Made by a program: the position numbers and the translations under genes
Part shown: piece after piece, positions 7,165-34,415 of the stretch
Layout: each line of letters starts with the position of its first letter
Numbering within the stretch: position 1 is the first letter of the stretch
Virus record (IMG/VR): IMGVR_UViG_3300042987_001910
Location: 1 to 55,952 of that record
Strand: one strand, 5' to 3'
Source of the DNA: a virus
Lineage: Duplodnaviria > Caudoviricetes
Length of the DNA stretch: 55,952 nt
Notes under the pieces: generated by a model
Databases searched by the model: none
Told to the model about the DNA's origin: nothing
What the model saw: only the letters and a program-made list of their open reading frames with translations

Positions 7165-8130
7165 TTACGCCTTGTAGGCGTAGAGGTCGACCAGAGCCTC
7201 CGGCTTGACAACCTTGTAGCCGTACACGTTCAGACCGCGAACGATGTTGCCAAAGGTCGACTCGCTGCGGAGCGTCTCGACGTTGCTCATCTGGGACGCG
7301 AAGGTGATTGCGTCCTTCGTGCCAGCGAGAACGTGGAACGACTTGCGGTCAGCCGCGCCGCCCGTGCCGCCCGACGAGGAGTCGGAACCGAGGTCGGTAA
7401 CCGACGACAGGTTGTTCGACACGAAGACCGTGAAGCGGTCGATCATGCCGAGCTTGCCGTTCCGCAGCGGGGACACGTCGTCGCCCGTGAGGTAGGCTTG
7501 CTTGAGGTCGGACTTCTTCAGCATCGCCGCCATCCAAGCCGGGATCACGATGAAGCGCCCCGTCTCCGGCACGTTCTGCTCGTCGAGAACCTGACCGCAG
7601 TCAAGGATCGCGTCGAGGACCGTGGTCGAAGACACAGCACGCGGAGCGCCGGTCGCGCCGAGGTTGATATCGGCGGAGAGCGCACCAGCCGTCGCGCCCT
7701 TGTTGGCGGTAGCGGCATCGGCGTACACGTTACCAAGGACATCGCTGTCGATGGCGATCTTCATCTGCTCGGCGGCGTCGTTCGTGAAGATGTCCATCAG
7801 CTTCACGTCCGCTTGCACTTCCTGCACGTCGTCCACGACAACGGCAAAGTACTTGCCCTTGTCGATCAGGAGTTCGAGCGGGGTGCTGGTCGGCACTTGC
7901 GACGTGAGGGTCGCGCCAGACGAGTAGTTGTTGATCGTGATGTTCGGCACGGTGCGGATATGCACCTTGTCGCCCATCGACTTGATCTCGCCCTGCCAGT
8001 CGGTGTTGGCGATCTCGCCGAAAACCGTCGACTTGTAGAACTTGACTTGGAGCTTGCCGCTCCAGATTTCCGGAATGAACTTCGAGCCGGTCGAATAGCC
8101 GGTGTAACCTGCTGCAACTGGGAATGCCAT
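7165..8130 (-). CDS. Major capsid protein (HK97 fold)
   Basis: FIPEIWSGKLQVKFY...NTDWQGEI...GDKVHI...LDEQNVPETGRF...RGLNVYGYKVVKPEAL; follows scaffold, precedes terminator. Confidence 0.9.
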   Translation of the reverse strand: MAFPVAAGYTGYSTGSKFIPEIWSGKLQVKFYKSTVFGEIANTDWQGEIKSMGDKVHIRTVPNITINNYSSGATLTSQVPTSTPLELLIDKGKYFAVVVDDVQEVQADVKLMDIFTNDAAEQMKIAIDSDVLGNVYADAATANKGATAGALSADINLGATGAPRAVSSTTVLDAILDCGQVLDEQNVPETGRFIVIPAWMAAMLKKSDLKQAYLTGDDVSPLRNGKLGMIDRFTVFVSNNLSSVTDLGSDSSSGGTGGAADRKSFHVLAGTKDAITFASQMSNVETLRSESTFGNIVRGLNVYGYKVVKPEALVDLYAYKA

Positions 8131-9847: not shown

Positions 9848-11875
9848 TCACGCTCCTTCCATTGGTTGCTGGGGTGCTGCTTGCTGCATATCCGCTCCAC
9901 CGGCGGGGTTCCCCGCGGCGTCCAGCGTCTGCGGCTGTTGCGGCTGCATTTGCATCTGCATTTGCATTGCAGCTTGCTGGATCATCGCCTGCTTCTCCTG
10001 CTCATGCTTCATAGCTTCAGGCGTTGGAACAATCTTGTCGGTGTCCATCTGCAGCGAGGCAGCGACTTCGCGCAACAGGTAGGCACGACCGTCGGCACCG
10101 ATGATCTGGAGGTCGACCGGATTGGCAGTCGCGGCAAGGAACTCGTTGCGGCGAATCTGCAACTGCTCGCGGGCAAGGAGACCCATCGCGCCCTTGGCGA
10201 CGATGTTGAAGTCGCCCTTCACGAAAGGGTCGTCGTGATACATCATGTTGTGAACGTAGAAGCGGTGGACGACTCCAGACACGACCTTGTCGATGGAGGC
10301 GATCGCCGCCTTGATCCCCTTTGCCGCGTTGTCCATGAGCATGGACAGACCGGAGGCAGTTCGCCCGGCTCCGGATACAGTGGCTGACCCATATACATAA
10401 TTTGGTATACCGGTTACCTCATCCGCCTGCCGCGCGAACTGTTGGTACACGCCCATCAGTTCCGCAGCCTTCATGTCTGGGACGAAGAAGCGGATGCCGG
10501 CCTGACCGCCGCCCGTGCGATCGGAGGTTGTCTGCCAGATCTTCCACGGGTACATCTGGGTGAGGTCTTCTCCCTCCGCCAGACGGTCGACGTTCACCTC
10601 GACCTGCGGGCCGGAGGCAATCGCCATGTTATTCGCGAGCGCCCGAGCCGCGCCGTTGCAGAGGATCTGCACGTCGCGCATGATCTCCGGCAGCGCCGTA
10701 CCCCAGAACGAGCCGGGGATGTTCTCCCACGACGTGATCTCGTACGGACGGCGACCGAGGGGGTCTGGGTTGATAACGCACTTAATGACGTGGTTCCCGA
10801 CCATCCAAGCGTTGACTTCGTACTCGTCGAGAGGGTCGACATCGTCCATGCCCCACTCGATCAACATCTGCCCGGAAGCCGGACCCCAGAACTCGATGGC
10901 CTCTATGAGGTTGCCCTGCTCAATCTCAGCGTGTGGCTTGCCTTCCAGATCGTCGCGTTGCTCGTCGCCCTGCACCCACGACTTAAGGCCACCGCGACCG
11001 TACGCCTCAAGGGCTCCGGCGATCTCGTTGTCAGAGTAGCCCGGCACGCCCATGAAGGACTTCAGCTGCTCCCGGTTGAGACGGTGGCGCTGAATGAGGT
11101 AGTTGTCATCCACTGAGCCCGAGTTGGGGGCGGGGTAGATGTCGTACGGGGAAACGCGCTCTACTTCGCGGTTGAAGTCGGAGACCACGATGGGCACGAA
11201 CTCAGGCCCCCACTCCAGCCGCTTCTTCTTCCTGACCGTCGGACCCTTGAGGATAGCCGTCGGGTAGGTGACGAAGTCGGAGATGAAATCGTTAAACGCC
11301 TTCTCCCAGCTACCCTTGTGCAGCTGGTCTTCGATGAGGTTGCCCATGCGACGGGCACGCTCCTTCGCCTCTTCCTTGACCTTGAGCAGCAGCTGGTCGT
11401 GGACTTCCGACAGGCGCATAGAAAAGGTGTCCGGGTGGAGCCTTGCTCCCATCGCCAGAAACTCCTGCGCCTCTGCCTGCACCAGACGGACGATGTCCAT
11501 CTTAACTTCAGGCGGGATGATCGGCTGTTCGGTGGGAACGAGGTCGAACGGGCGCTCACGCATATTAATGAGCACGTCCTTGATCCACGACTCCGCCGCC
11601 CGACACTTGATGTCGGTGAGCATCATGTAGATATCAGACCCGCCCGTCTTGGCAATCTCCAGCGCGCGGTCTGGATCGTACACACCACGACGCTGGCGCT
11701 CGCACTTCAGAAGCCGTTCGGTGAGTTCGGTCTTCGCGAACTTGGCTCGATTCCAGCAGTCGCTGATGTGACCGGCGATGGCACTACCAAAGCGGGCGTT
11801 CTCCTCGCCGTATTGTTCGGCGCGAATATCTACTTCCGCTGGCGGCACTGCCCTTACGACGTTCACTAAGTCCAC
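9848..11875 (-). CDS. Portal protein
   Basis: 675 aa directly after terminase; VSPYDIYP, NNMAIASGPQV, GRTASGLSMLM, Gln-rich C-terminus. Confidence 0.9.
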   Translation of the reverse strand: MDLVNVVRAVPPAEVDIRAEQYGEENARFGSAIAGHISDCWNRAKFAKTELTERLLKCERQRRGVYDPDRALEIAKTGGSDIYMMLTDIKCRAAESWIKDVLINMRERPFDLVPTEQPIIPPEVKMDIVRLVQAEAQEFLAMGARLHPDTFSMRLSEVHDQLLLKVKEEAKERARRMGNLIEDQLHKGSWEKAFNDFISDFVTYPTAILKGPTVRKKKRLEWGPEFVPIVVSDFNREVERVSPYDIYPAPNSGSVDDNYLIQRHRLNREQLKSFMGVPGYSDNEIAGALEAYGRGGLKSWVQGDEQRDDLEGKPHAEIEQGNLIEAIEFWGPASGQMLIEWGMDDVDPLDEYEVNAWMVGNHVIKCVINPDPLGRRPYEITSWENIPGSFWGTALPEIMRDVQILCNGAARALANNMAIASGPQVEVNVDRLAEGEDLTQMYPWKIWQTTSDRTGGGQAGIRFFVPDMKAAELMGVYQQFARQADEVTGIPNYVYGSATVSGAGRTASGLSMLMDNAAKGIKAAIASIDKVVSGVVHRFYVHNMMYHDDPFVKGDFNIVAKGAMGLLAREQLQIRRNEFLAATANPVDLQIIGADGRAYLLREVAASLQMDTDKIVPTPEAMKHEQEKQAMIQQAAMQMQMQMQPQQPQTLDAAGNPAGGADMQQAAPQQPMEGA

Positions 11876-13302
11876 CCTTTCGCGTTGGTCTTTTTAAGCG
11901 CCTTTGCCCTTACGGGCTGGACGGTTGTTCTCACGCGCAAGCAAGCGTATTGCAGCGCGTCATGGATGTGGCTGAAGCGGTCTTTTACCGGACGTTCGCG
12001 GTAGATCTCACCCGAAACCTTCAAGCGTTCGTAGCGGTAGCCACCGATGAATCCTTTGCGCAGCGTTTTGCAGTTGGCATCTATCAAGAAGCCCGGCTCT
12101 CCCCCAGCCATGCGGTTGAGGAAGAACGCGACAGATTCCCTGCGCGGAATAAAGTCGTTGGTGTTCGCCGGCTCGGTCGGCAGCCCGACCTCCAGCAGTT
12201 CTTGAAAGCAGGTGCGCTCGTCGGTCTGCGCCCGGTTCATGCCTGCCGGGTCACCGCAGCTTTCGATCCGGTGCTTGGCGTACTTGTTGAGGATCACCGG
12301 CTTCACGACATCGGTCGCGAACTGGCGGATCCCCATGTCCTCGGCGACCAACTCTTCGAGGACGATGAACTGTCCGCGGGGCGTCATCTGGCAGATGGCG
12401 ACCGCAGGGGTAAGCCCGAAGTCCCAGCCCAGAATGATCGGCAGCCCGAGGATCGGTTTCAGATCCTTCTCGGCGACGTGGATGCGGTCGTTGTACTCCG
12501 GGTAGACCGGCTTACCGTCCGCCGTCGTCCCGTAGTCGCCCATAAGAAAGACGGAGATCCAATCGTCCGTCTTCCCGCCCAACTGCCGGAGGTAGTACTC
12601 GTAGCCCCCGGTGAGGTTGGAGATGTTCTCCGCGTCCGGGTGGGGCTTGTACTGCCCGTCCTCGCGGTAGAGACCTCCCGCCTGCCGGTAGAACTCCCAG
12701 CCGTCCGGGGTCTCTTCCTCCGCGAACTTGTAGTACCAGTGTTCGTCGTCTGGTGGGTTTGTATCCAGCAAGATACAAGGGTAGCTAGGGCCGCCCTTGG
12801 TCTTGGGCGGGAACCGTCCCACCCGCTGGGTCACCATGTCGAAGATCTCTTTCGGAACCTCCGAGCACTCGTTGATCCACGCGCCGGTGAGTTCGAGAGA
12901 CCTCAGCTTTCCGGTCTCCTGCGCCTTATCCAAGGCGAGGAAGATTACTTCGAGGTCGAGGCTGGTTCCGTCGCCGATGTCCTTGACCTTGAACCGGGCG
13001 GTAATCGGAGCGTCCCACTTGATGGGACACAGACTCTCCGGCACCCAGTTCTGCCACGTCTTGATCGTCGTGGACTTCAACTCAGGGTAGGTGTTCCGGA
13101 TAACGGCCCACCGCGACTCCCTGACCCCATTGAAGGGCTTCTGCTTCAGCGCCTGCGCGACGATCTCCATCACGCAGGTGGAGGACTTGCCGGAGCCGAC
13201 CGGCCCCATCAGCCCCTTCACGAACGCCTTGCTCTGGTGGAATCGAGCCGCCTGTTCCCCCGGCGGTTTGTACTCGATCCGGTCTCCCCCTCCCCCGTCC
13301 AT
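11866..13302 (-). CDS. terL: Terminase large subunit
   Basis: Walker A GPVGSGKS, RNTYPEL, Walker B GAWINE, DTNPP, nuclease GWDFG and HIHDALQY. Confidence 0.95.
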   Translation of the reverse strand: MDGGGGDRIEYKPPGEQAARFHQSKAFVKGLMGPVGSGKSSTCVMEIVAQALKQKPFNGVRESRWAVIRNTYPELKSTTIKTWQNWVPESLCPIKWDAPITARFKVKDIGDGTSLDLEVIFLALDKAQETGKLRSLELTGAWINECSEVPKEIFDMVTQRVGRFPPKTKGGPSYPCILLDTNPPDDEHWYYKFAEEETPDGWEFYRQAGGLYREDGQYKPHPDAENISNLTGGYEYYLRQLGGKTDDWISVFLMGDYGTTADGKPVYPEYNDRIHVAEKDLKPILGLPIILGWDFGLTPAVAICQMTPRGQFIVLEELVAEDMGIRQFATDVVKPVILNKYAKHRIESCGDPAGMNRAQTDERTCFQELLEVGLPTEPANTNDFIPRRESVAFFLNRMAGGEPGFLIDANCKTLRKGFIGGYRYERLKVSGEIYRERPVKDRFSHIHDALQYACLRVRTTVQPVRAKALKKTNAKGWT

Positions 13303-14294: not shown

Positions 14295-14650
14295 TACCGC
14301 TTACCTTTCTTTTTAACGTAGCCGCCGTCCTTCATCCCCACCTCGGCGAGGATCTTCCGGGTGTACCGCTGGTCTTCGCGGTAACCCTCCGGGGCGTCGA
14401 ACTTGTCGGGGTTGAGTTCAAAGTTCCCAGCCGCCATCGGCGAGGAGGAGGGGACGCGCTTGTCTTTCTTCTCCCCGCCCGGCACAGCCTCACGGGAAGC
14501 CTCCTGCGCCTGCCGTTCCGCTTCCGTCACCTTGGTTGCTTCGGAGTAAGGGATCGGGGCTTGGATATCCACGCCACCGGGGGTGCCGTCCGCGAATGCG
14601 AGAACGGTCTTCTTGAAGTCTTGATCGTTCCAGTCGGGGCGATGACCCAC
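14294..14650 (-). CDS. First late-operon protein with MGHRPDWN..FADG.PGG N-terminus and MKDGG C-terminal motif
   Basis: GGAGG RBS, GTG start; N-terminus paralogous to downstream gene. Confidence 0.7.
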   Translation of the reverse strand: MGHRPDWNDQDFKKTVLAFADGTPGGVDIQAPIPYSEATKVTEAERQAQEASREAVPGGEKKDKRVPSSSPMAAGNFELNPDKFDAPEGYREDQRYTRKILAEVGMKDGGYVKKKGKR

Positions 14651-14659
14651 GTTGACCTC

Positions 14660-14696
14660 CAGAAATAGAAAAGGCCGGGACGCAAAGCCCCAGCCT
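14660..14696 (-). terminator. Terminator-like hairpin in the late leader
   Basis: AGGCTGGGGC-TTTGC-GTCCCGGCCT (two G.U pairs) followed by TTTCTATTTCT, just upstream of the first late RBS. Confidence 0.5.
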
Positions 14697-14704
14697 GTAA
14701 GAGC

Positions 14705-14733
14705 TATATACAGACTGATCCGCTGTTTGTCGA
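14705..14733 (-). promoter_or_regulatory. Possible late promoter TCGACA-N17-TATATA
   Basis: Partial sigma70 match with 17-bp spacer; -10 lacks the final T. Confidence 0.3.
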
Positions 14734-15113
14734 GTTTTTGTCGATCTTTTTTTGTTTTGGCCCTATTTAGGACATTTGCTGCCCAAAAAATCCGGCCACG
14801 AAGCTAGCTTCGTCACCACTTTCGCGTCACGCAGCGCGCTAGATGGCGCGATTCCAGAAAAAAAGCAGCCGGAGTCCCAATAGCCCCCCGGCATAGGGCT
14901 GTTTTGGTCCGGTGAGGGTGCCTTAGAAGGGGTCGGCCGGGGGAGGTTTGAGTCGAAAAGGGCCGGCTGTCGGGGGAAGGGGTCGTGTTTGTGGTGGGGT
15001 GTGAGCCAGAGGCTCAGACGCCGGGGGGGTCGGCTCGTTTGTCCACCGCGGCACCCCGCCCCACCGCCCCACCGCCGCCTCCCAGACGGACAATCCGCAC
15101 GTCTCCCCTCTGC

Positions 15114-15126
15114 AATCAAGCACTTG
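15114..15126 (+). promoter_or_regulatory. IHF consensus site AATCAAGCACTTG
   Basis: Exact match to WATCAANNNNTTR in a noncoding region. Confidence 0.5.
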
Positions 15127-15260
15127 CGCTCCCTCTGTGTCGTGAATGTGGCGTAAGAGGGGCGGAAACGAGCGTTGCCAGAGGGGGCGATGCGCCATCC
15201 TGCCCGGTCACGGGGCGGAATTCGGGGTTTTTCGCCTCCGGTGCCCGTGTTGGCGCGTTC

Positions 15261-15273
15261 TATCAATCACTTA
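15261..15273 (+). promoter_or_regulatory. IHF consensus site TATCAATCACTTA
   Basis: Exact match to WATCAANNNNTTR. Confidence 0.5.
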
Positions 15274-15403
15274 CGCGCACCGACCCCCCTTTGTCTTCAT
15301 TTGTCGTCGTTTGTCGCTTGCCCCCCTGTTTCGACCCATTTCCGGAGAGTTTGGGTTGCCGACAGCAACCCGCTGTCCACATCCACCTATACGGGAGATC
15401 ACC

Positions 15404-15544
15404 ATGCGCCAGCTTTCCTTCCTCGCCTTCGACGTTACCGACGCTGCCATCGAGACCCTCTTCGCCGAGGACACGGTAGTGACCTATGACGACCTGATCG
15501 AGATGCAAGACAAGGCTCTGCGCCGTATGGCGTTCGCTGACTAA
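15404..15544 (+). CDS. 46-aa early protein MRQLSFLAFDVTD...
   Basis: GGGAG RBS; first gene after box 1. Confidence 0.65.
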   Translation: MRQLSFLAFDVTDAAIETLFAEDTVVTYDDLIEMQDKALRRMAFAD

Positions 15545-15609
15545 TCCGGCAGCGCCGGGGTCAACGGATTCCGGCGCGCCCCCTCAACCCTGACCAACGG
15601 AGACAAACC

Positions 15610-15894
15610 ATGAACAAAACCACCATTGACGCCAACATCCTGATCGCCCGTCTCGCCACCATTCGCGCCGGGCTCCGTCTCGAAGCTGTCGGCATGAAAA
15701 CGCGGGGCGGCGCTCTGCGCCCGCGGGTAGCGGCTGAATTCGGGCTCTCGAAGCGCGACCCGTTCCCCGTGTTCATCGCTCGGGCTACCGAGATGATCGA
15801 AGAGCTGCGCGGTGAATTCGCCCGCAGCTTGGAGGCGCGCGGCGTCTCGAAGACCGCCGCAATGATCGTGGCGAACGTCGAGGCGAATGGCTGA
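15610..15894 (+). CDS. Early hypothetical protein
   Basis: CAACGGAGACAAACC-ATG leader; 94 aa. Confidence 0.75.
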   Translation: MNKTTIDANILIARLATIRAGLRLEAVGMKTRGGALRPRVAAEFGLSKRDPFPVFIARATEMIEELRGEFARSLEARGVSKTAAMIVANVEANG

Positions 15895-15928
15895 CCCATT
15901 TCCGGAAGCTTCACTTCGTTCCCAACTC

Positions 15929-15954
15929 GCCGCCCTTCGGGGCGGCTTTTTTTT
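15929..15954 (+). terminator. Intrinsic terminator-like hairpin directly before an RBS
   Basis: GCCGCCC-TTCG-GGGCGGC-T8. Confidence 0.75.
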
Positions 15955-15964
15955 GGAGGCTCAC

Positions 15965-16723
15965 ATGGCACGTCCTACTGGCTTCATCCTGTATCGCGGT
16001 CCTTCCCTGATCGACGGGGCTCCCATCGTTGTGATCGCTCTCACGGGCAAGAGCAAGAACGTGAAGACCGGCGCTCTCATGCAGACCTACATCCTGCGGG
16101 CTGACATGGAGCCCCTTGCGGCAATCCGTGAGGGGTCGGATTCGTCGATTTGCGGCGCGTGCCCCCATCGTGGCGGTGAGGGTCGCAAGCGGTCGTGCTA
16201 CGTCAACGTCGGTCAAGGGGCGACGATGGTCTACCGCGCCTTCCTGCGGGGTCGCTACCCCGACATCTCGGGCGATGTCTCTGCCATTCGGGAGATCGGT
16301 TGGGGTCGCCGTGTGCGGCTCGGCACCTACGGCGATCCCGCAGCTGCGCCGGCGTTGGTGTGGCAGGCGCTCGTCGCCGACGCGGAGGGCAACACCGGGT
16401 ACACGCACCAAATCGCCAACGCGGCGCTCTCGATTGCGCAGCGGCACGCGATAGCGCAGCTGTGCATGGTCTCGGCTGACACGCCCGAGGATGCGCAGCG
16501 TGCCCGTGACTCGGGCTTCCGCTACTTCCGCATCCGTCTAGAGACAGAGGCGCTCGGTGAGCGCGAGTTCGTCTGCCCGGCATCGGCAGAGGGCGGCAAG
16601 CGGATGCTGTGCGCCGATTGCATGGCGTGCTCGGGCTCTAGCAAGGGCAAGTCGTCGCCCGTGATCATCGCTCACGGCTCCCTGAAGCGTAATTACCGCA
16701 CGTTCCGCTTGCAGGCTGTGTGA
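15965..16723 (+). CDS. Cys-rich phage protein, Gp88-like / radical-SAM-like
   Basis: SKNVKTG, ICGACPH...SCY, RLGTYGD, GYTHQ, CPAS...CADCMAC, IIAHG; GGAGG RBS. Confidence 0.65.
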   Translation: MARPTGFILYRGPSLIDGAPIVVIALTGKSKNVKTGALMQTYILRADMEPLAAIREGSDSSICGACPHRGGEGRKRSCYVNVGQGATMVYRAFLRGRYPDISGDVSAIREIGWGRRVRLGTYGDPAAAPALVWQALVADAEGNTGYTHQIANAALSIAQRHAIAQLCMVSADTPEDAQRARDSGFRYFRIRLETEALGEREFVCPASAEGGKRMLCADCMACSGSSKGKSSPVIIAHGSLKRNYRTFRLQAV

Positions 16724-16817
16724 TTCGGGCAGCGCCGGGATCGAGGGGTTCCGGCGCGACCCATTTCCGGAAGATTCACTTCGCAGCAACAAACCAACCA
16801 ACCAACGGAGACAAACC

Positions 16818-17081
16818 ATGAACGTCCAAGTCAAGTTTGAGAACAATGGGGAGCACTCGCCACACGCCATGCTCATTCGCGTAGCCGTGCGTTTTGCGAA
16901 CACCTTTGACGAATGCGCGGATGCGCGTCTGGACTACCTCGCGGAACTCTTTCGCGAGCTTCTGCCGACGGGGCTTGCGCCGGGGCGGGTGCCCCTGCCC
17001 AACGCGCTGATTTACCGGGGCGGGAACCACGTTGCCGTGTGCAGCGGGAACGACCGCATCGCCCTGATCACCGTCGAGTAG
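16818..17081 (+). CDS. Early hypothetical protein
   Basis: Repeated leader ACCAACGGAGACAAACC-ATG. Confidence 0.75.
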   Translation: MNVQVKFENNGEHSPHAMLIRVAVRFANTFDECADARLDYLAELFRELLPTGLAPGRVPLPNALIYRGGNHVAVCSGNDRIALITVE

Positions 17082-17167
17082 GCAAGCAGGGGTCGTCGGT
17101 TTCCGGCGACCCCTTTCCGGATGATTCAACTCGCAACAAGACAAACAACCAACCAACGGAGACAAAC

Positions 17168-17509
17168 ATGACAAACGCACAAGCGATCCTTCAGCAGGCG
17201 CAGCAGGCAGGCAACGCGGCATTCGAGGCAGAGGTTCCGCAACCCATGATCGTGACTGGCATGGGACAAACGCACGTCGTGGACGATGGCGTCTGCGGCT
17301 TCGCGTGGGTGAAGATCAAGGGCAACACCGCATTCGGGCGCTACTGCGCGAAGCAGGGCTACGCACGCAGGGCATACGGCGGCGGGCTTGCGTTCTATCC
17401 CGGTCATCTCTCGCAGTCCTACGACCGGAAGATGGCATGGGCTCGGGCGTTTGCTCGGGTACTGGAGTCGCACGGCATCAGCGCCTACGCGACTGGGCAT
17501 CTCGACTGA
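17168..17509 (+). CDS. Conserved phage protein with CGFAWV and SQSYDRK motifs
   Basis: Repeated leader; start MTNAQ; motifs typical of a widespread phage hypothetical family. Confidence 0.75.
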   Translation: MTNAQAILQQAQQAGNAAFEAEVPQPMIVTGMGQTHVVDDGVCGFAWVKIKGNTAFGRYCAKQGYARRAYGGGLAFYPGHLSQSYDRKMAWARAFARVLESHGISAYATGHLD

Positions 17510-17531
17510 CAACCAACCAACGGAGACAAGC

Positions 17532-17729
17532 ATGGACAAGCAGAACGACAAGCACGAAATCACCGCCTTTAACCGCGTCATCGACCGCCTCACCAAGCGC
17601 GAACGTGAGCTTGAGCAGGCGCTTGAGGTCGCCCTCGATTACATCGAGGAGTTGATGGGCAGCGACTTCGATGACGAGAGCGAGACCGTAAAGTTTTTGA
17701 AGGCGGCTCTCCATCGGAAGCGCAAGTAG
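17532..17729 (+). CDS. Early helical hypothetical protein (MDKQ...)
   Basis: Repeated leader ACCAACGGAGACAAGC-ATG. Confidence 0.75.
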   Translation: MDKQNDKHEITAFNRVIDRLTKRERELEQALEVALDYIEELMGSDFDDESETVKFLKAALHRKRK

Positions 17730-17808
17730 GCAGGCAGGGGTCGGGTCGTTGCGGCTCGACCCCTTTCCGGATCATTCAACTGGCAGCAACCAACAAACGG
17801 AGACAAAC

Positions 17809-18030
17809 ATGGACAAGCAGGTCATCAAGATCTACTACCGTTGGCACAACGACCCGACGACCGAGTGGGAGGGCACCGGGATCATCGCCGAGTACGACGA
17901 GGGCGCAGACCCCGACGACGGCGTGCTCTACCGCTTCGAGCCGGGAGAGCAGATCACCGGCGACAAGGGCGAGTTCACCGTCACCGCATGGGAACCCGCC
18001 CTCTTCGAGCACTACCCCTACGCAGACTAA
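17809..18030 (+). CDS. Early acidic hypothetical protein (MDKQ...)
   Basis: Repeated leader; same first 12 nt as previous gene. Confidence 0.75.
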   Translation: MDKQVIKIYYRWHNDPTTEWEGTGIIAEYDEGADPDDGVLYRFEPGEQITGDKGEFTVTAWEPALFEHYPYAD

Positions 18031-18051
18031 CCCGACAAACGGAGACAAACC

Positions 18052-18210
18052 ATGAAAGCGAAAGACCTCATCGCCGCGCTGCAAAACGTCTCGCCTGACT
18101 GCGATGTTTCGGTTTGGGTCAATGGCAATCGGCATTGGGCGGTTGGCACCGACGATTCATTCGTCGAGAGCGAAAACTTTTTCGAGATCAACATCAACAT
18201 TGGAGACTGA
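18052..18210 (+). CDS. 52-aa early protein MKAKDLIAALQNVSPDCDVSV...
   Basis: Below ORF cutoff; repeated leader ACGGAGACAAACC-ATG. Confidence 0.75.
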   Translation: MKAKDLIAALQNVSPDCDVSVWVNGNRHWAVGTDDSFVESENFFEININIGD

Positions 18211-18212
18211 CC

Positions 18213-18770
18213 ATGAAATTCCGCACTGAAATGCTTGCAGGCAAGGCGCTCGACTGGGCAGTCGCGAAGTGCGACGGGCAGCCCGTGTACTGGCACGCCA
18301 AGGACGAGGCGCTCTACATGGGGTTCGGCACGGGCGACAACGCCTACGCCCCCTCTACGGACTGGGCGCAAGGCGGGTCGATCATCGAGCAGAACTGGAT
18401 CAACGTATCCAACGAACACGATGCGTGGGTAGCGGAGATTGCGGACGACGCGCCTGATGGGTACATCTCGGCTACTGGCTACACGCCACTCGTCGCAGCC
18501 ATGCGCTGCTATGTCAAGTCGCGACTGGGTGACAAGGTCAGCGTGCCAGACGAGATCGTGAGTGGTCCGCTCATGCGCCTCGCCGTGGCGCTGAAGGACT
18601 GCGAGCCGGCAGGCGCGACAGTCACCAAGCAAATGGCGGGCGACATAGCTGTGCTGCTAGAGCAGCTGCTCGACTACGCCGAGAGCGCGACCTTGGAGGA
18701 GGACGAGGAGCCGCAGTTCTTCAGGGACGCTCGGGAATACATTGCCGTGCTTGAGAAGGCGGCGAGTTAG
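18213..18770 (+). CDS. DUF2591/NinX-like protein with C-terminal extension
   Basis: LAGKALDWAVAK...YAPSTDWAQGGSIIE...TPLVAAMRCYV. Confidence 0.75.
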   Translation: MKFRTEMLAGKALDWAVAKCDGQPVYWHAKDEALYMGFGTGDNAYAPSTDWAQGGSIIEQNWINVSNEHDAWVAEIADDAPDGYISATGYTPLVAAMRCYVKSRLGDKVSVPDEIVSGPLMRLAVALKDCEPAGATVTKQMAGDIAVLLEQLLDYAESATLEEDEEPQFFRDAREYIAVLEKAAS

Positions 18771-18805
18771 CCGACCCATTTCCGGATAGTTGAAGCAGCA
18801 CAACG

Positions 18806-18867
18806 AGCCCCGCCAGTCGGGGCTTTTGTTTTTCCCCAACCCTCGCCCCTCACGGGGCATTTTTTTT
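18806..18867 (+). terminator. Two tandem terminator-like hairpins before the AAA+ gene
   Basis: AGCCCCG/CGGGGCT + TTTGTTTTT; GCCCC/GGGGC + AT8. Confidence 0.65.
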
Positions 18868-18877
18868 GGAGCCTCAC

Positions 18878-20074
18878 ATGAACGAGCAAGTCCTTTCCCG
18901 TTTGTCCGGTCTTCGTCACAAGCAAGTCCTCGACGTGCTGCGCCGCCTCGGTGGCGGCACCGTCGGTTTCAACTACGCGAAGTTCAACAAGGACGAGCTG
19001 TGCCAGTTCGCCGCCGAGCAGTACAACGCGGACGAGGTGAGCAGCGCCATCCTCGACGCTCTCTCCAAGGGCAACGCCAAGCCTGCCAAGCCGACGATGC
19101 AGGTGCTGCAAGCGAACACCGCGCCCGAGGTCAGCAACGTGGTTGCGCTCCCGGTCAAGGTTGACTACTCGCACATTCGCCCGGTGCGTAAGGCGATGGC
19201 GTCGGAGGTGTTCGGCGTCACGATGGAGAGTGATATCGAGGTCGAGGTGTGGAACGACCCCGACGCGCCCGACGTTGACCCGCTGTGGGTGTGGGACGCG
19301 CGGCTCCTGCACCGCGTGCTGACTGCCATGCAGCGCGGCGCTCCCGTGTGGTGCAACGGCGAGAAGGGTACGGGCAAGACGCAGTTCGCCCAACAGATGG
19401 CGGCTCGTCTCGGCAGGCATTGCTCTGTGATCCAGTTCGACCGCTACACCGAGCGCCACGAGATCATCGGCTCTCGCGGGATGCAGTCGGCGTCCACCGT
19501 GTGGGAGGACGGCGCTCTCGCCAAGGCTTGCCGCCGGCCGGGCTGCATCATCCTGCTCGATGAGATCACGCTCGGGCAGCCGGGGTTGATCGCCATCCTG
19601 AACACGGTGCTCGACCGTGCGTCGAAGGGGTTCCGCATTGCGGAGACGGGCGAGTTCGTGGTCAAGGCGCAGGGCGTGTCGTTCCTCGCTGCGGACAACA
19701 CCTGCGGTACGGGCGACCCGACGGGACGGTACATCGGAACGAACGAGTTCAACCAAGCCACGCTCGACCGCTTCTCCCGGTTCGTGACGTTCACGTTCCT
19801 GCCGCCGGAGGTCGAGACGCAGGTGATCACCTCGAAGACGGGCGCTGACGATGCTCTCGCCAAGCGCATCGTGGACTTGCTTGCCGTGTGCCGCGGCAAG
19901 GTGAACGAAGGCGAACTGGTTGACCCGCCCTCGCTGCGGCAGGCAATTGCCTTCGCCGAGGCGGTGCTCGACAACATCCCGGCAGATGAAGCGTTCGAGA
20001 TGACGGTCGCCTCGAAGACCGTCGCCGAGTGCCGGGAGCAGCTGCGTCAGCTGTTCATCGCAACGTGGGTCTGA
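18878..20074 (+). CDS. MoxR/CobS-like AAA+ ATPase
   Basis: Walker A GEKGTGKT, Walker B IILLDEI, sensor ADNT, ATLDRF. Confidence 0.9.
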   Translation: MNEQVLSRLSGLRHKQVLDVLRRLGGGTVGFNYAKFNKDELCQFAAEQYNADEVSSAILDALSKGNAKPAKPTMQVLQANTAPEVSNVVALPVKVDYSHIRPVRKAMASEVFGVTMESDIEVEVWNDPDAPDVDPLWVWDARLLHRVLTAMQRGAPVWCNGEKGTGKTQFAQQMAARLGRHCSVIQFDRYTERHEIIGSRGMQSASTVWEDGALAKACRRPGCIILLDEITLGQPGLIAILNTVLDRASKGFRIAETGEFVVKAQGVSFLAADNTCGTGDPTGRYIGTNEFNQATLDRFSRFVTFTFLPPEVETQVITSKTGADDALAKRIVDLLAVCRGKVNEGELVDPPSLRQAIAFAEAVLDNIPADEAFEMTVASKTVAECREQLRQLFIATWV

Positions 20075-20101
20075 CAAACAACCGACAAAGGGAGACAAAC
20101 C

Positions 20102-21316
20102 ATGCGCACCATCAACCTCAACTCGTACGCCTCACCGTTCATCCATCCCCGTGTGTCGGGGGCGGAGATCATGTCTGCCTGCACGCTGACTGCGCAACGC
20201 CTACCCCGTACTGACGCTGCGCAGAAGGTGTTCGCCGTCACCATGCGGGAGATCAAGGTGACGTTCAACGGCAGCACGGCGTTCGCCTCGTATGACCGTG
20301 GCTCTACCGACAGCCTGCCGGGTGCGGTGCCGTACATCAACTCCGGGCGCATCAACCTGCCGTACGTTGACCCCGACGTGCGGCTCTCGCGCAAGACGGC
20401 GAACCAGTGGGTCGGCTACATCGCCCATGAATTGCTGCACATGATGTTCACCAACGACTCGACATGGAAGCGGACTGCGCACGCCAACTGGTTCAAGGGG
20501 CGGCTGCTCAACGGACTGGAGGATGCGCGCATCGAGGAGTGCGGCAGGCACTTCGGCTTTGCACCGGGCGCTAACTTCTGCATCCACGCTCTCGTTCGCG
20601 ACATGATCGAACGCGCCGCTGATGCGGACGATTCGGTGATCTACGCGACTCGCAACTTCCCGTGGATTCTCGCCATCGGGTTGCGCGGCTACGGCGTTGG
20701 CGAGGAGGCGATCATCAAGAACCTCCCGCCCGAGCTTGCCAAGATCTACAAGGCGGCGGCCAAGGCGTATGCCAAGGCACTCGCCAAGCCCGAGTTCTTC
20801 GACCAGTTCAAGGGCACGACCCTCATGGTGCGCATCGCAACGATGGTCTACAAGAAGCTGAAGCAGCTGCACGACGAGCAAGAGAAGGACGATCCGCGTC
20901 GGCCGCCGGAAGATGAAGAGGGCAGCGAGGAGGGAGATCAGCCAACCGACGAGCCGGGCGAAGAGGAAGGCGAAGACAAGGGCGAGGGCGAGGGCAAGGA
21001 GGAGGAAGGCGACGGCGAGGAGTCAGGCGAAGAGCCGGGCGAAGACGGCACCGACGGCGACGAGAAGGGCGAGGACAAGGGAGAAGGCGAAGGCGAGGGA
21101 GAGGGAGAAGGCGAGGGCAAGGGCGAAGAGCACGGCGACAAGCCGGGCAAGGGCTACACCAAGGACGGCGGCGACGGTCGCGAACCGTTCGAGGATCCCG
21201 ACGAGATCGAGGACACCAAGGACACACTCGACGTGGAGCCAACGCCCACCATCGGCAGCTGCGAGTCGGCTCTCGCTGCGGCACAGGACTATTCGATCTA
21301 CGTCATTCAACGCTAG
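20102..21316 (+). CDS. CobT N-terminal-like protein: HExxH metallopeptidase motif plus long acidic Glu/Gly linker
   Basis: IAHELLH...NGLEDARIE; EGEG repeats. Confidence 0.8.
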   Translation: MRTINLNSYASPFIHPRVSGAEIMSACTLTAQRLPRTDAAQKVFAVTMREIKVTFNGSTAFASYDRGSTDSLPGAVPYINSGRINLPYVDPDVRLSRKTANQWVGYIAHELLHMMFTNDSTWKRTAHANWFKGRLLNGLEDARIEECGRHFGFAPGANFCIHALVRDMIERAADADDSVIYATRNFPWILAIGLRGYGVGEEAIIKNLPPELAKIYKAAAKAYAKALAKPEFFDQFKGTTLMVRIATMVYKKLKQLHDEQEKDDPRRPPEDEEGSEEGDQPTDEPGEEEGEDKGEGEGKEEEGDGEESGEEPGEDGTDGDEKGEDKGEGEGEGEGEGEGKGEEHGDKPGKGYTKDGGDGREPFEDPDEIEDTKDTLDVEPTPTIGSCESALAAAQDYSIYVIQR

Positions 21317-21325
21317 GAGACAAAC

Positions 21326-22186
21326 ATGAGACACGCACTCATCGACAGCCTGTCTGTCGGCAAGGCACGCTATACCCTGCGCAAGCTGCTCTCGCGCACC
21401 GACCGCAGCGAATACCTGCGCGGCCTGCGCGCCGGGCGACTGACGCAGCAGTACCTGCCCCGTGCGGTAGCGGGCGAGACCAACGTGTTCCAACGCAGGC
21501 TGGAGAAGGACGGCGTGAACACATACGTTTCCGTCGCCATCGACTCCAGTAGTTCGATGGGGTATTACGAGAGAGACAAGGCGGCGCAACGCCTCGCCTG
21601 CACGCTGTCCGCTGCGCTGTCCGGCTGCGTCGGCGTCAAGCATGACGTGCTCGGCTGGACGAGCGGCCGGCTGCACTTAGCCACTCATAGCCAGTTCCGC
21701 GCGAAGCGGGTCAAGGAGATCAATGACGGCAAGGATGATCACCGCACCGTGATTGGCGAGAACCGCGGTGACCCGTCGCGTGGCCTTGGTGACTCGACCC
21801 TGACGTACCTGAAGACCGACAGACAAACGACTGGTCACTTGTGCTCCGTGTTCGCCGAGAACCCGCACATCCTTGCCTGTGGCGCAACGCCCGCGTTCGC
21901 TTCACTCGCGGCGACGGTGCGTCAGGTGCGGAGCAAGCGTTCGTTCGAGCGCAAGGTGATCATGTTCCTCACCGACGGCGCGGTGAATGACGGCGGCGAG
22001 CGCCGCCTCATGCACCGCCTTTGCGAGGAGGTGCTGCGTGACGGGATCATCGTGATCGGCGTGGGCGTGCAGGCGAATGCGGCTGGCTGCTTCCCGCCTG
22101 ACAGCTACCTCACGGTGATGGATCCCGCCGACCTCGGCGGCAAGGCAATGACCAAACTGGTCGAGAGGATTGCCAAGGCTGCATAA
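21326..22186 (+). CDS. vWA domain protein (CobT C-terminal-like)
   Basis: MIDAS DSSSS, ATP, LTDG; IGVGV. Confidence 0.85.
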   Translation: MRHALIDSLSVGKARYTLRKLLSRTDRSEYLRGLRAGRLTQQYLPRAVAGETNVFQRRLEKDGVNTYVSVAIDSSSSMGYYERDKAAQRLACTLSAALSGCVGVKHDVLGWTSGRLHLATHSQFRAKRVKEINDGKDDHRTVIGENRGDPSRGLGDSTLTYLKTDRQTTGHLCSVFAENPHILACGATPAFASLAATVRQVRSKRSFERKVIMFLTDGAVNDGGERRLMHRLCEEVLRDGIIVIGVGVQANAAGCFPPDSYLTVMDPADLGGKAMTKLVERIAKAA

Positions 22187-22313
22187 GCCTTGGCTGTTCC
22201 TCCATAAGTCGCGCTGATGCGCGCATCAAAACATTCCATTGGTGCGCGGCCGTATGATTTCACTATGATTCGTTCGTTGGCGCGTTGCCAACACACTCAA
22301 AGGGAGAAGAAAC

Positions 22314-22460
22314 ATGATTCGCCAGTACTCAGTCGGCCTCAAGAAAGAGCACAACGACCTCCTCATCAAGGCGCAGAAGAAGATTTCGGAAGAGATGGGG
22401 TTCGAGGTGGCGCGCGCTCAAGCCGTCGCAATCCTCGCGTCTCGCTACATCAAGGGCTAG
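22314..22460 (+). CDS. 48-aa protein, possible ribbon-helix-helix DNA-binding protein
   Basis: GGGAG RBS; MIRQYSVGL strand followed by two predicted helices (judged by eye). Confidence 0.5.
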   Translation: MIRQYSVGLKKEHNDLLIKAQKKISEEMGFEVARAQAVAILASRYIKG

Positions 22461-22462
22461 GC

Positions 22463-22555
22463 GTGAGCAACCTCGGCGACACGATCATCGGATGGCTCGG
22501 AGCCCTCGGCTCCGCCGCCATCATGGTCGAGTACCTCGTACGGGTGGCGCTGTGA
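22463..22555 (+). CDS. 30-aa hydrophobic membrane peptide
   Basis: GTG right after previous stop; single hydrophobic segment. Confidence 0.4.
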   Translation: MSNLGDTIIGWLGALGSAAIMVEYLVRVAL

Positions 22556-22710
22556 AGAAGGAGCCGCAGCGCCGCGTCTCTATCCCTCGACCTTGGGTTC
22601 CGTCATGGGCGCACTATGGCGTGCAGGGTTTGATGGAGTTCGGCGAACGGCAACGAGACCGGCTGAAGAAAGCCGGCAAGCAGCGCCGGGTTGTTGTGAC
22701 TATGATCTGA
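22552..22710 (+). CDS. Small hypothetical protein
   Basis: GTGA overlap with previous gene. Confidence 0.4.
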   Translation: MKKEPQRRVSIPRPWVPSWAHYGVQGLMEFGERQRDRLKKAGKQRRVVVTMI

Positions 22711-23167
22711 AGTGCTCGACCCACAGGTCTGACAGCGCATCAATGGCGCGGAAGTGGATGGGGAGATAGCGGTGCTCCATCTGCTTCCGCGCTTTCACTA
22801 TCTGCCGGTAACTCAGCGAGTGCCTCTTCGCCATCGTGCGCACCGCAGGCCGGCGCGCGACGATGTTGCATAGCACGTCCCGCTGCAACTCCTTCCCCTC
22901 ACCTCCCGTCAGTATCACCGCAAGCTCGCTGATCGCGAGATGCCGCAGCCGCCCGGTTGCAAACGAGGCGTACATCGCCAGTCGTTGGTCTGTCGGCAGT
23001 TCGTCCAGTTGCCGGATGAGCATCGCCGCCTGCGCGTGCGCATCGTAGATGGTCATGCCGTTCGGGTCAGTGCTGCGCGACTCGAAGAAGTTCACCGACG
23101 CGAGGTGAACCTTGGCGCTCATGCTAAACGCCCACCGCAGGGCGTGCTCCGGACCCTTGAACTTCAT
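22700..23167 (-). CDS. Putative late-gene regulator (Q antiterminator / sigma region 4-like)
   Basis: Last gene of replication operon; C-terminal HTH-like AVRTMAKRHSLSYRQI. Confidence 0.5.
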   Translation of the reverse strand: MKFKGPEHALRWAFSMSAKVHLASVNFFESRSTDPNGMTIYDAHAQAAMLIRQLDELPTDQRLAMYASFATGRLRHLAISELAVILTGGEGKELQRDVLCNIVARRPAVRTMAKRHSLSYRQIVKARKQMEHRYLPIHFRAIDALSDLWVEHFRS

Positions 23168-27811: not shown

Positions 27812-27841
27812 TTGACGCAGGTGAAAGTTGCCGGTTACGAT
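27812..27841 (+). promoter_or_regulatory. Sigma70-like rightward promoter TTGACG-N18-TACGAT overlapped by AAGTTGCC repeats
   Basis: In divergent intergenic region upstream of AAGGAGG RBS. Confidence 0.5.
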
Positions 27842-27867
27842 TAGACCACGTTCTCAAGGAGGGGGCC

Positions 27868-27996
27868 ATGACGGAGCAGGAAAAGAGGGCGGTCACCGAT
27901 GCGCTCATGCGCATCGTGATCGGGACGGCGACCGTGGCAGACGCGAGGCTCCTCGCCGCTGCGGTCAACATCGACTGGGAGGAGATTTCGCAATGA
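27868..27996 (+). CDS. 42-aa hypothetical protein
   Basis: AAGGAGG RBS; ATGA overlap with next gene. Confidence 0.6.
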   Translation: MTEQEKRAVTDALMRIVIGTATVADARLLAAAVNIDWEEISQ

Positions 27997-28745
27997 GCAA
28001 CCTTGCCCTGTGGGAGCAGGTGCAGACGCCGGACCCCGCGTACACGAAGAGCTTCACCCGCGGCGGCGGGTTCTCCGGCACCGCCATCAACGCGACGTGG
28101 CTGGTCAAGCGCGCGACCGAGGTGTGGGGACCGATGGGTCTCAACTGGGGCATCACCATCTGCGAGGAGAAGATCCTCGAAGGTGCGCCCTTCTCGCTCG
28201 GCGACGGGCAGATCGCCCACGAGAAGATCCACTGCATCCGCGTTGACCTTTGGTATCCGGCCGGCGAACAGCGCGGAGTGGTCACCCAGTTCGGGCAGAC
28301 CACCTTCGTTGGGCGGAACAAGCACGGCTGTTTCACCGACGAAGAAGCCCCCAAGAAATCACTGACCGACGCAATGACTAAGGCGCTCTCGCTCTTGGGC
28401 TTTGCCGCCGACGTTCACATGGGCAAGTTCGACGACAACAAGTACGTCAACAGCGCGCGTGAGAAATACGTCGCAGAGGAGACCGACAAGGTGCGTCAGG
28501 CGCGGGTGGCGGAACTCAGCGAGATGTTCAAGTCAGCGACAACGCTTGACGAGTTGGCAGCTGCGTGGGGATCGCTTACAGGGGAGGAGCAGAAATGGAT
28601 GGCGGGGCTGAAGGACGCGCGGAAGGCAACCCTCACCAGCGCACCGATGAATGGAGAAAGCAGCGAGAAGGCAAGCTCACAGCGTCCTCGTTCGGCGAGG
28701 CGCTCGGGCTCGTCGGAAGCTGGCAGCGTTGCTACCGCCGGCTGA
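27993..28745 (+). CDS. Single-strand annealing protein, Rad52/Sak-like
   Basis: TDP-like TPDPAYTK...TAIN...WGPMGLNWG...EEAPKKSLTDAMTKALSLLGFAADVHMG. Confidence 0.8.
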   Translation: MSNLALWEQVQTPDPAYTKSFTRGGGFSGTAINATWLVKRATEVWGPMGLNWGITICEEKILEGAPFSLGDGQIAHEKIHCIRVDLWYPAGEQRGVVTQFGQTTFVGRNKHGCFTDEEAPKKSLTDAMTKALSLLGFAADVHMGKFDDNKYVNSAREKYVAEETDKVRQARVAELSEMFKSATTLDELAAAWGSLTGEEQKWMAGLKDARKATLTSAPMNGESSEKASSQRPRSARRSGSSEAGSVATAG

Positions 28746-31788: not shown

Positions 31789-32074
31789 CTTTGCACAAAC
31801 GGTTGGTATGTCTTACGACCGTGTACGTTTGTTGGCGCAGAAGGGGGAGATCCCAGCCATCAGGTTGGGGCGGACATGGAGGGTTGTCGACCCGACGGAA
31901 GTGGAGTACTTTCGCCAATGGCGAGAGGCCGGCGGGCAAGAGAGGGCGCTATGTCAATTGTCAAGAGAGGGAAGTACTGGCACATCGATGTCGTTCTCCC
32001 GAGCGGAGAGCGGCACCGGGAGTCCACCAAAACGCAGGACAAGAAGCTTGCTCAGGAGCTACACGATCGCGTAA
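31766..32074 (+). CDS. xis: Excisionase (HTH_17-like)
   Basis: SLRDFAQTVGMSYDRVRLLAQKGEIPAIRLGRTWRV; overlaps int start. Confidence 0.75.
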   Translation: MKFISLRDFAQTVGMSYDRVRLLAQKGEIPAIRLGRTWRVVDPTEVEYFRQWREAGGQERALCQLSREGSTGTSMSFSRAESGTGSPPKRRTRSLLRSYTIA

Positions 32075-34220: not shown

Positions 34221-34415
34221 ATGTTCGACCCAACCAAACCGACAAAGACGAGACGCGGAGACGAGGTCACCATCATTTGCCACGCCGGGAGGATGCCGTT
34301 CCCGATCATCGGCTACATCGGAGACGACAACCACGTCGAGCAGTGGACGAAGCAAGGATGGCGCTACATCAACGGGCGCACCAACCGCTCCGACCTCGAC
34401 CTGCTTAACGTGTAG
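34221..34415 (+). CDS. Small conserved phage protein
   Basis: KPTKTRRGDEVTII...FPIIG...WTKQG...DLDL. Confidence 0.6.
   Translation: MFDPTKPTKTRRGDEVTIICHAGRMPFPIIGYIGDDNHVEQWTKQGWRYINGRTNRSDLDLLNV

Follow-up and report, generated by a model that had tools for sequence, protein, structure and literature searches.

A repeated 14-nt box in composite intergenic units of a variable gene module of an uncultured freshwater phage

The window analyzed here is a complete IMG/VR virus record (IMGVR_UViG_3300042987_001910, Caudoviricetes) of 55,952 bp with a G+C content of about 60% and an estimated completeness of 98%. In a module of 13 genes on its + strand, numbered g1 to g13, the intergenic DNA is a combinatorial set of four re-used parts: a 14-nt box, a hairpin, a CA-rich translation leader, and a terminator joined to a second type of leader. 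The box, GACCC(A/C)TTTCCGGA, may be the core of a phage-specific promoter which is not of the sigma-70 type and which forms part of composite terminator/promoter/leader cassettes resembling the promoter-stem-loop (PeSL) cassettes of T4-type phages. This reading, which is drawn from the sequence, is favored tentatively. What is seen directly is the anatomy of the units, the pattern of conservation, the lack of conventional promoters in the module and the variability of the module.

Six exact copies of the box, without exception on the + strand, lie inside 3.5 kb, and each is located at a gene boundary between 15333 and 18786, as the original prediction had stated. The copies point the same way as the genes, and an ATG follows 37-91 nt downstream. 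Allowing up to two mismatches, seven matches were found in comparison to a mean of 0.90 (maximum 3) in shuffled sequences, and none of 100 shuffles reached seven. Allowing up to three mismatches, 11 matches were found in comparison to a shuffle mean of 10.2, which places the five additional ones at chance level. Copies with one mismatch were not found anywhere in the 56-kb window. Since the matches beyond the exact ones are at chance level, the array consists of six perfect boxes and has no decayed copies. They are as follows:

Box 1: 15333..15346, + strand, precedes the first module gene, 57 nt before the ATG of g1; extended motif at 15332-15359
Box 2: 15893..15906, + strand, overlaps the stop codon of g2; terminator T1 comes next
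Box 3: 16758..16771, + strand, directly behind hairpin H3
Box 4 (C variant): 17108..17121, + strand, its first 7 nt are the 3' arm of hairpin H4
Box 5 (C variant): 17758..17771, + strand, its first 7 nt are the 3' arm of hairpin H5
Box 6: 18773..18786, + strand, starts 2 nt past the stop codon of g9; terminators T2 and T3 come next

In a gap-free alignment anchored on the box, the pattern c-box-nnn-TT-n6-G is present in six of six copies and is followed by a C in five. The last two bases of the box together with the next four form GAnnnT, which resembles a -10 hexamer and has A and T where the consensus scan demands them; seven bases past that T follows the invariant G. The chance of one invariant column is 0.0016. 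The flanks of boxes 1 and 6 are unrelated to the rest and those of the other copies are 70-91% alike, while the 14-mer is identical throughout save for the one A/C position.

Four related hairpins follow stop codons in the module. Folding confirmed them as well as the claim that the box lies in the 3' arm of the last two.

H1: 15548-15580, + strand, after g1; core of 11 bp, unit z -2.0, no box behind it
H3: 16727-16762, + strand, after g3; core of 11 bp with three outer pairs, unit minimum free energy (MFE) -34.3 kcal/mol, z -3.0
H4: 17088-17114, + strand, after g4; 12 bp, z -2.9, followed by TTT
H5: 17736-17764, + strand, after g6; 13 bp, z -2.4, followed by TTT

H1 is homologous to H3-H5 according to the alignment and repeat families D11 and D17, and marks a unit with hairpin and leader that is either decayed or box-less. 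The pairing-preserving swaps described earlier could be recovered: between H1 and H3 two stem positions differ, both one-sided and pairing-preserving, and the loop differs at three of four bases, and H4 and H5 have the outer 7 bp in common and differ in the inner pairs, a comparison which is limited to two plus two paralogues and includes no orthologues. A hairpin precedes or overlaps boxes 3-5 and is absent upstream of boxes 1, 2, and 6.

Boxes 2 and 6 are instead followed by intrinsic terminators, which the original prediction did not mention, just as it lacked the second leader type, the downstream TT and G, and the box-less H1 unit.

T1: 15929-15954, + strand, intrinsic terminator of seven G-C pairs and T8, 22 nt past box 2, adjoins the ribosome-binding site of g3
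T2: 18805-18835, + strand, intrinsic terminator, 18 nt past box 6
T3: 18845-18868, + strand, intrinsic terminator with T8, paralogue of T1, adjoins the ribosome-binding site of g10

The T1 and T3 units form repeat family D13 with 76% identity over 49 nt. The hairpin type of T1 occurs in 101 phage records, one of which carries a terminator annotation. The second leader type, TTTTTTGGAG(G/C)CTCACATG, is the ribosome-binding site of the two larger conserved genes, g3 and g10. Two contexts of the box can thus be told apart. In type I (boxes 3-5), the order is stop codon, hairpin, box, CA-rich leader, and ATG; in type II (boxes 2 and 6), the stop codon and the box are followed, after 18-22 nt, by one or two intrinsic terminators of canonical form with T8 tails and then by the second leader. 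Box 1 stands in a context of its own, with no gene upstream of it on the + strand. This anatomy, in which one invariant box unlike sigma-70 promoters is placed both behind hairpins and ahead of terminators and is confined to one genome, is unusual, and the terminators right behind boxes 2 and 6 complicate a simple promoter reading.

The CA-rich leader GGAGACAA(A/G)C is present in eight exact copies on the + strand (15599, 16807, 17158, 17522, 17799, 18041, 20091, and 21316), in agreement with the eight genes originally reported to carry it. With at most one mismatch, 24 matches were found, and none of 100 shuffles (mean 8.6) reached this number. The form GGAGAC-N3-5-ATG precedes 9 of the 13 module genes, all of which start with ATG; it adds 18202 to the positions of the exact copies and spans 15599..21328 (repeat families D2, D4, and D6). 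Outside the module, the leader was found at only one more gene start of the window (4235, - strand). The similarity extends into the coding sequence, since the neighbors g6 and g7 share the ATG and nine further nucleotides, i.e., the 12 coding nucleotides noticed before. At least 9 of the 12 nt after the ATG are shared in 3 of 78 gene pairs, in comparison to none of 624 internal controls. In the closest relative of the phage (L058), CA-rich GGAGAC leaders stand ahead of three unrelated genes, and one of them aligns with the leader and first codons of g6 (86% over 43 nt). An unrelated 95-kb phage contig from IMG/VR, which carries a locus of the g2 family (L273), has a fixed leader of its own, TTTTAGGAGCAATATCATG, in at least six copies within 10 kb.

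The CA-rich leader can be compared to the start-associated sequences (SAS) of Cluster K mycobacteriophages, which are described as conserved and asymmetric with a Shine-Dalgarno core, located near mostly ATG starts of non-structural genes, with extended SAS (ESAS) inverted repeats immediately upstream (PMC3203893). The GGAGACAAAC leader is alike in being asymmetric, in holding a Shine-Dalgarno core 0-1 nt from the ATG, in its restriction to the non-structural part, in its single orientation, in preceding unrelated genes and in being common to a related phage (L058). It is unlike them in sequence, which differs from the published consensus, and in belonging to an unrelated phage group; moreover, unlike the ESAS, the hairpins lie 35-50 nt upstream of the leader with the box in between. 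Since a fixed leader is also found in L273 and in the start-associated sequences (PMC3203893), fixed translation leaders look like a common phage habit.

Conventional promoters are lacking in the module. A strict scan found no sigma-70-like site on its + strand, including the positions at and upstream of box 1 and the intergenic spaces, and a relaxed scan of 14700-19000 gave one match, whose -10 element overlaps the start codon of g6. Both the anchored alignment and the promoter scan thus agree with the earlier statement that GAnnnT follows every box and that a consistent -35 is missing. Elsewhere in the window, a conventional-looking, near-consensus promoter-like site, TTGACG-18-TACGAT, is located at 27812 ahead of the exonuclease operon, and TCGACA-17-TATATA was read by eye ahead of the leftward late (structural) operon. 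The region 27812-28745 (+ strand) holds this site and, starting there, an exonuclease gene which matches phrog_7838 with an E-value of 4e-60 and whose frame overlaps ORFs on the opposite strand.

The leader of the late operon (window 14650-14733, - strand) consists of the promoter-like site, 8 nt, a terminator-like hairpin of 10 bp (14696-14672), a U-rich run, GGAGG, and the start codon GTG at 14650. Such a succession of promoter and terminator suggests either antitermination control of the late genes or a stabilizing 5' hairpin. The region of this hairpin is conserved in L058. Boxes 2 and 6 repeat the late-operon order of promoter position, terminator, and ribosome-binding site, so that the box occupies the promoter position. 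Similarly, box 1 stands at the place of an operon promoter, because no + strand gene lies upstream and the ATG of g1 is 57 nt away. The promoter-core reading was ranked first due to the lack of a sigma-70 site, the box at the operon start, the -10-like hexamer with its G, the strong conservation, and the shared order with the late operon.

Beside these elements, TTTGTCG direct repeats with a spacing of 10-11 nt are found at 14726, 14737, 15300, and 15310 (also TTTGTC at about 15290). They flank the stretch of 750 non-coding nt that separates the divergent operons, and their last set ends 16 nt before box 1. These repeats may be binding sites of a regulator or a replication protein.

In the favored reading, the box with GAnnnT and the invariant G would form a promoter core without a -35 element, used by the host RNA polymerase together with an additional factor. 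A phage or host factor would read the box, and transcription would start at the G 12 nt past it (15358, 15918, 16783, 17133, 17783, and 18798). The G+C-rich hairpins ahead of boxes 3-5 would stop or dampen upstream transcription and protect the 3' ends of the upstream messages, and the CA-rich leader would provide an unstructured, optimized region for translation start. Combined in this way, the parts could act as small insulated transcription/translation units with the layout of the T4 PeSLs, which may have arisen via duplication and recombination of intergenic segments of about 100 nt.

The variability of the module becomes visible in relatives of the phage. TerL has 281 relatives in IMG/VR, the closest being that of L058 with 93% identity. 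The flanks of L058 align with the window at 73-81%, and 14723..22591 (7.9 kb) lacks any nucleotide similarity to it: in this sole informative comparison, the module is replaced wholesale by unrelated DNA, with breakpoints outside the boxes. Matches to module proteins among 81 related loci are limited to g10 (about 25% identity, 17 of 81 loci), g9 (two loci), and the tail of g13 (one locus), 10 of the 13 proteins being without a match; in L058, only g10 and the g13 tail are matched. Because of the missing similarity in L058 and the few protein matches in relatives, the module is regarded as a variable region.

No box and no comparable repeat were found in L058. Among 80 TerL relatives searched, 14 have a single box match at two mismatches and none a closer one, and of the 51 related loci that reach 9 kb or more, only two contain an 11-mer in at least four dispersed copies. 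IMG/VR contains no box array, its 50 matching loci having one match each, and no array is among the matches listed for 185,579 species genomes (at least 120 loci with one match each). A search of metagenome contigs for box and leader gave six loci, none resembling the window, and the box part of two units had no match in cultured phages. The C variant of the 14-mer was observed inside the 26-30-nt core of tandem repeats of about 65-77 nt in three loci (L163, L198, and L202) of one metagenome-assembled genome (MAG) with 47% G+C, which belongs to an unrelated uncultured bacterium; given the size of the collection, we take this occurrence as chance.

Among the systems compared, layout and setting of the array appear most like the T4 PeSLs. 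PeSLs are described as a stem-loop and an early promoter flanking ORFans in hyperplastic regions, with stem-loops that terminate, crossovers mapped between -10 and ATG, and strong sigma-70-like promoters with -35, -10, and an AT-rich upstream region (PMC2839356; PMC4122927). Indels between close relatives, or mini-circles, with their junctions inside the cassettes mark such a system. Measured against these features, the array is alike in combining a stem-loop, a promoter-like element, a short leader, and an ATG, repeated between small ORFans in a variable region, and in a similarity between copies that reaches the ATG and slightly past it. It is unlike them in that a -35 is missing, the conserved part is a G+C-rich 14-mer and neither scan found a sigma-70-like promoter at any box; further, the phage is a 56-kb, probably temperate podovirus-like freshwater phage and not T4-type, two boxes precede terminators, and recombination of the described kind at the copies was not seen in the single relative compared (L058). 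There is neither a sigma-70-like promoter nor demonstrated shuffling at the copies, so the array was not filed as a member of the PeSLs. Of the PeSL-like system originally proposed, the layout and the variable setting thus stand, whereas the capture and swapping of genes at the repeats found no support, the L058 breakpoints lying outside the boxes.

Several points weigh against the box being a promoter core. The hexamer begins with G and not with the consensus T, and neither a -35 nor a TG extension is present; judged by eye against the consensus forms, the box does not fit sigma-54, sigma-32, or extracytoplasmic function (ECF) layouts either. Transcripts from boxes 2 and 6 would meet strong terminators at 7-11 nt past the proposed start, which would be wasteful unless these are leaky or overridden, and at box 1 the proposed start falls into a 7-bp hairpin, namely its 5' arm. 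No more than three independent lineages (box 1, box 6, and boxes 2-5) underlie the invariant TT and G, and the count of roughly four matching columns in the first 13, versus about 0.9 expected, is our own estimate for columns chosen post hoc. The box is in no other genome searched, so conservation across species is unusable as evidence. Furthermore, among the sequencing runs searched, no RNA run holds the phage, and no candidate for a sigma factor, an activator, or a polymerase was found in it. Binding sites of integration host factor (IHF), a CcrM site, and a partition-site heptamer were also considered by eye as identities of the box, and none fits all six copies.

The search for a factor reading the box covered ORF scans with PHROG and Pfam as well as six-frame searches, in which no RNA polymerase, sigma factor, or helix-turn-helix protein was found. 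This matches the earlier observation that the phage has no recognizable RNA polymerase, so the view of a reader without an identified counterpart in the sequence stands. A six-frame search with PF00940 gave no match, as did the control genomes, which makes it a weak search on its own. No helix-turn-helix family was matched by the 55 ORFs scanned with Pfam, where a divergent protein could be missed. In comparison to the promoters of T7- or N4-like polymerases, the array is unlike in that no phage or virion RNA polymerase was found, the six-frame search being one without a working control.

Two proteins were considered as candidates. The basic protein g2 belongs to a family of small conserved phage proteins with 74 relatives in a full HMMER search; a word-based search found nothing, and the Atlas gave no named family. 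Its AlphaFold model is all-helical with a pLDDT of 91.5 and has no PDB match at E-values up to 0.001. Six loci with g2 relatives lack box arrays and the model matches no solved fold, which led to the rejection of g2 as the reader and is a further point against the promoter core. The second candidate, a hidden polymerase within a 2743-aa polyvalent virion protein (34405-42636, - strand), was rejected as well at the level of sequence, as only the domains ART-PolyVal (residues 1620-1831) and LPD38 and no PDB sequence match were found. The protein also contains an HExxH-like motif and a long low-complexity N-terminal part, and its residues 1-1620 match no family. It is rather unlikely, but conceivable, that the box is read by a transcription factor without detectable relatives, either a small module protein or a part of the injected 2743-aa protein, which would enable the host RNA polymerase to work without a -35 and to resist terminators. 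Boxes 2 and 6 with T1 and T2/T3, perhaps also the late-operon leader, would then be promoter-terminator checkpoints timing g3 and g10-g13.

The most serious rival explanation, still an unlikely one, regards the box as an asymmetric operator of the stoperator type, where a phage repressor or regulator would bind as a monomer at the box 1 promoter and at the five intergenic boxes and, in the lysogen, prevent both initiation and elongation in the module; this is compatible with a promoter role. L5-type stoperators are asymmetric 13-mers in promoters and short intergenic spaces with an orientation tied to transcription, and more than 20 of them are spread across the genomes of Cluster A mycobacteriophages (PMC9283540). 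A stoperator system also includes a monomeric repressor with helix-turn-helix and stoperator domains. The array agrees with this account in its short non-palindromic site of 14 nt, the promoter and short intergenic positions, the uniform orientation to transcription (six of six on the + strand), the copy at the operon start, and the probably temperate phage, which encodes an integrase. The terminators right after boxes 2 and 6 pose no difficulty here. However, the six sites are all within 3.5 kb of one module and none occurs elsewhere in the 56 kb, neither a recognizable repressor nor a helix-turn-helix or other DNA-binding domain was detected in the scanned ORFs, this reading gives no account of the A, T, TT, and G conserved downstream of the 14-mer, and the host is probably Gram-negative and thus of a lineage far from that of the mycobacteriophages.

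Less probable than an operator is a role of the box in elongation or at the RNA level, as a loading or pause site for an antitermination factor that would allow the polymerase to pass T1, T2/T3, and the hairpins, or as a processing or anti-Shine-Dalgarno element of a polycistronic RNA. The nut, put, ops, and qut sites are models of such loading and pause signals, lambdoid phages carry promoter-terminator pairs under antitermination control, and a promoter followed by a terminator is the layout of their antitermination-controlled late genes. The late operon of the window also starts with a promoter-like site and then a terminator-like hairpin, so this phage may use antitermination. Boxes 2 and 6 stand 18-22 nt ahead of strong terminators that would otherwise cut g3 and g10-g13 off from upstream starts, and box 1 lies within the operon leader. 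With the lambdoid pairs, boxes 2 and 6 and the late-operon leader share an element at promoter position and a strong terminator within tens of nucleotides; the differences are that no Q- or N-like protein was found, that the box is present in six copies, and that three of these have a hairpin upstream. No member of the N, Q, NusG/RfaH, or other antiterminator families was detected in the PHROG and Pfam scans, where remote relatives are possible. In units 3-5 the hairpin precedes the box instead of following it, so that the box lacks a consistent position relative to the hairpins.

At the RNA level, the MFE folds of the three type I units all pair UUUCC of the box with GGAGA of the leader, but this pairing has 5-6 bp and closes loops of 27-90 nt, and any GGAG complements a UUCC. 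Moreover, no secondary structure is conserved in the box itself, the units of boxes 2 and 6 fold no better than shuffled sequences (z -1.45 and -1.40), and an Rfam scan of 14500-23000 with E-values up to 1 gave two sub-threshold chance matches, neither at a box.

It is improbable that the box has no function and is simply the best-preserved part of recent intergenic duplications homogenized by gene conversion. In favor of this view, units C, D, and F are clear paralogues with 77-91% identity over 33-65 nt, the two terminator-leader units are paralogous as well (76%), and the box is limited to one genome. Boxes 1, 2, and 6, however, share only the box and a short extension with the other units, and flanks have diverged by 10-30% next to a box without any substitution except at the A/C position. 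In addition, the H1 unit lost its box and kept hairpin and leader, so conversion does not homogenize whole units.

Finally, we consider it very improbable that the box is the crossover core of an integron- or att-type site-specific recombination inserting cassettes serially: six direct identical copies do bound five segments of 350-1015 nt, in three of which the core at the 3' end adjoins a hairpin or is part of one, and the module is variable between relatives, but two of the five segments end without a hairpin (those before boxes 2 and 6), the sole recombinase is encoded at a distance of 13 kb and does not belong to the integron type (28.4 bits on the integron-integrase model TIGR02249 with a cut-off of 265), the L058 breakpoints lie outside the boxes, and no box-flanked cassette was found in IMG/VR, in metagenome contigs, or among the species-genome matches listed. 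DNA contigs from independent freshwater samples carry the phage or variants of 90-95% identity. One of these runs (X6) contributed a contig which reads to 17157, has one extra A, and continues at 16788, in line with rearrangement; the joint connects the g5 leader to the g4 leader, i.e., it lies in the CA-rich leaders and not in the box. It would suit a duplication, a circle, or a rearranged strain and is a lead and no more, because it comes from a single contig of low depth (5.9) that matches at 85% similarity and appears in a secondary table alone. Contig cover has gaps in two further runs (X3, none over 16853-17169; X4, none over 15268-15584 and almost none over 16536-17169), and no contig bridges them, so nothing was concluded from them.

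The 13 genes of the module are as follows:

g1: 15404-15544, + strand
g2: 15610-15894, + strand, basic protein of 94 aa, adjoins box 2
g3: 15965-16723, + strand, Cys-rich protein of 252 aa; phrog_2554, weak DUF7227
g4: 16818-17081, + strand
g5: 17168-17509, + strand
g6: 17532-17729, + strand
g7: 17809-18030, + strand
g8: 18052-18210, + strand
g9: 18213-18770, + strand, NinX-like
g10: 18878-20074, + strand, AAA_5/MoxR-CobS-like
g11: 20102-21316, + strand
g12: 21326-22186, + strand, VWA/CobT-like
g13: 22217-22555, + strand

Six of the 13 proteins had no match in PHROG, and single-protein searches of IMG/VR and the species genomes found no close relatives of g10. The suggestion that the module carries host-takeover or anti-defense genes found no backing, as none of the 13 proteins matches PADLOC and most match nothing. 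Relatives of g3 with 40-50% identity are present in 152 phage records, the very different hosts including Caulobacter, Mycobacterium, Gordonia, Roseobacter, Klebsiella, and Microcystis, and g3 looks like a widely exchanged accessory gene. In g11, an acidic low-complexity repeat rich in Gly, Glu, Asp, and Lys (20918-21164) draws very deep unrelated metagenomic cover (summed depth of up to 1067 in run X8), and most spurious contig joints fall into it.

The remaining genome map was drawn from PHROG, Pfam, and NCBIfam scans:

TerL: 11866-13302, leftward structural operon
Portal protein: 9848-11875, leftward structural operon
Major capsid protein: 7165-8130, leftward structural operon, which also encodes tail fibers
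Second leftward block: the 2743-aa polyvalent virion protein (ART-PolyVal and LPD38), an internal virion protein, lysozyme, and exonuclease
Replication block: helicase-primase and DUF1376
Rightward block: exonucleases, an SSB-like protein, a tyrosine integrase (31876-33012), and MazG

Based on this map, including the tyrosine integrase, the phage is probably temperate and podovirus-like. No tRNA genes were found in the window. The ORFs running off both ends of the record (1-702 and 55516-55952, both on the - strand) match neighboring positions of one profile, phrog_2295. A circularly permuted genome, opened within one gene, is the probable origin of the record; a simple join is out of frame with the ORF 55516-55950.

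By capsid protein, Rhizobium phages of the RHph_TM27A type are the nearest cultured relatives (51% identity). The phage encodes a T4-type lysozyme and a member of the heptosyltransferase family, which suggest a Gram-negative host. The TerL relatives name no host, as their contigs are phage-sized and were binned into MAGs of four different phyla or classes. The early region of Rhizobium phage RHph_TM27A (L057, 15500-31300) has a repeated element of its own, a palindrome GTTACC-N6-GGTAAC in well over ten copies. It is often located between genes or just before starts (18321, 19177, 20940, 21637, 25690, 26153, and 30103), and its 3' arm overlaps the GAGG ribosome-binding site.

Without a reader of the box, the finding would shrink to a case of intergenic duplication limited to one genome. 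Should the box be a promoter or an operator, it would be a transcription signal of an uncultured freshwater phage which has no recognizable polymerase, sigma factor, or regulator, and its reader would be new. The 28-nt signal and the 25-nt leader are compact and can readily be tested in reporters. If the favored reading is true, the re-used terminator/promoter/leader units would package ORFans as self-contained expression units and at the same time supply homology for shuffling, and the PeSL idea would extend past the T4-type phages to temperate podovirus-like phages.

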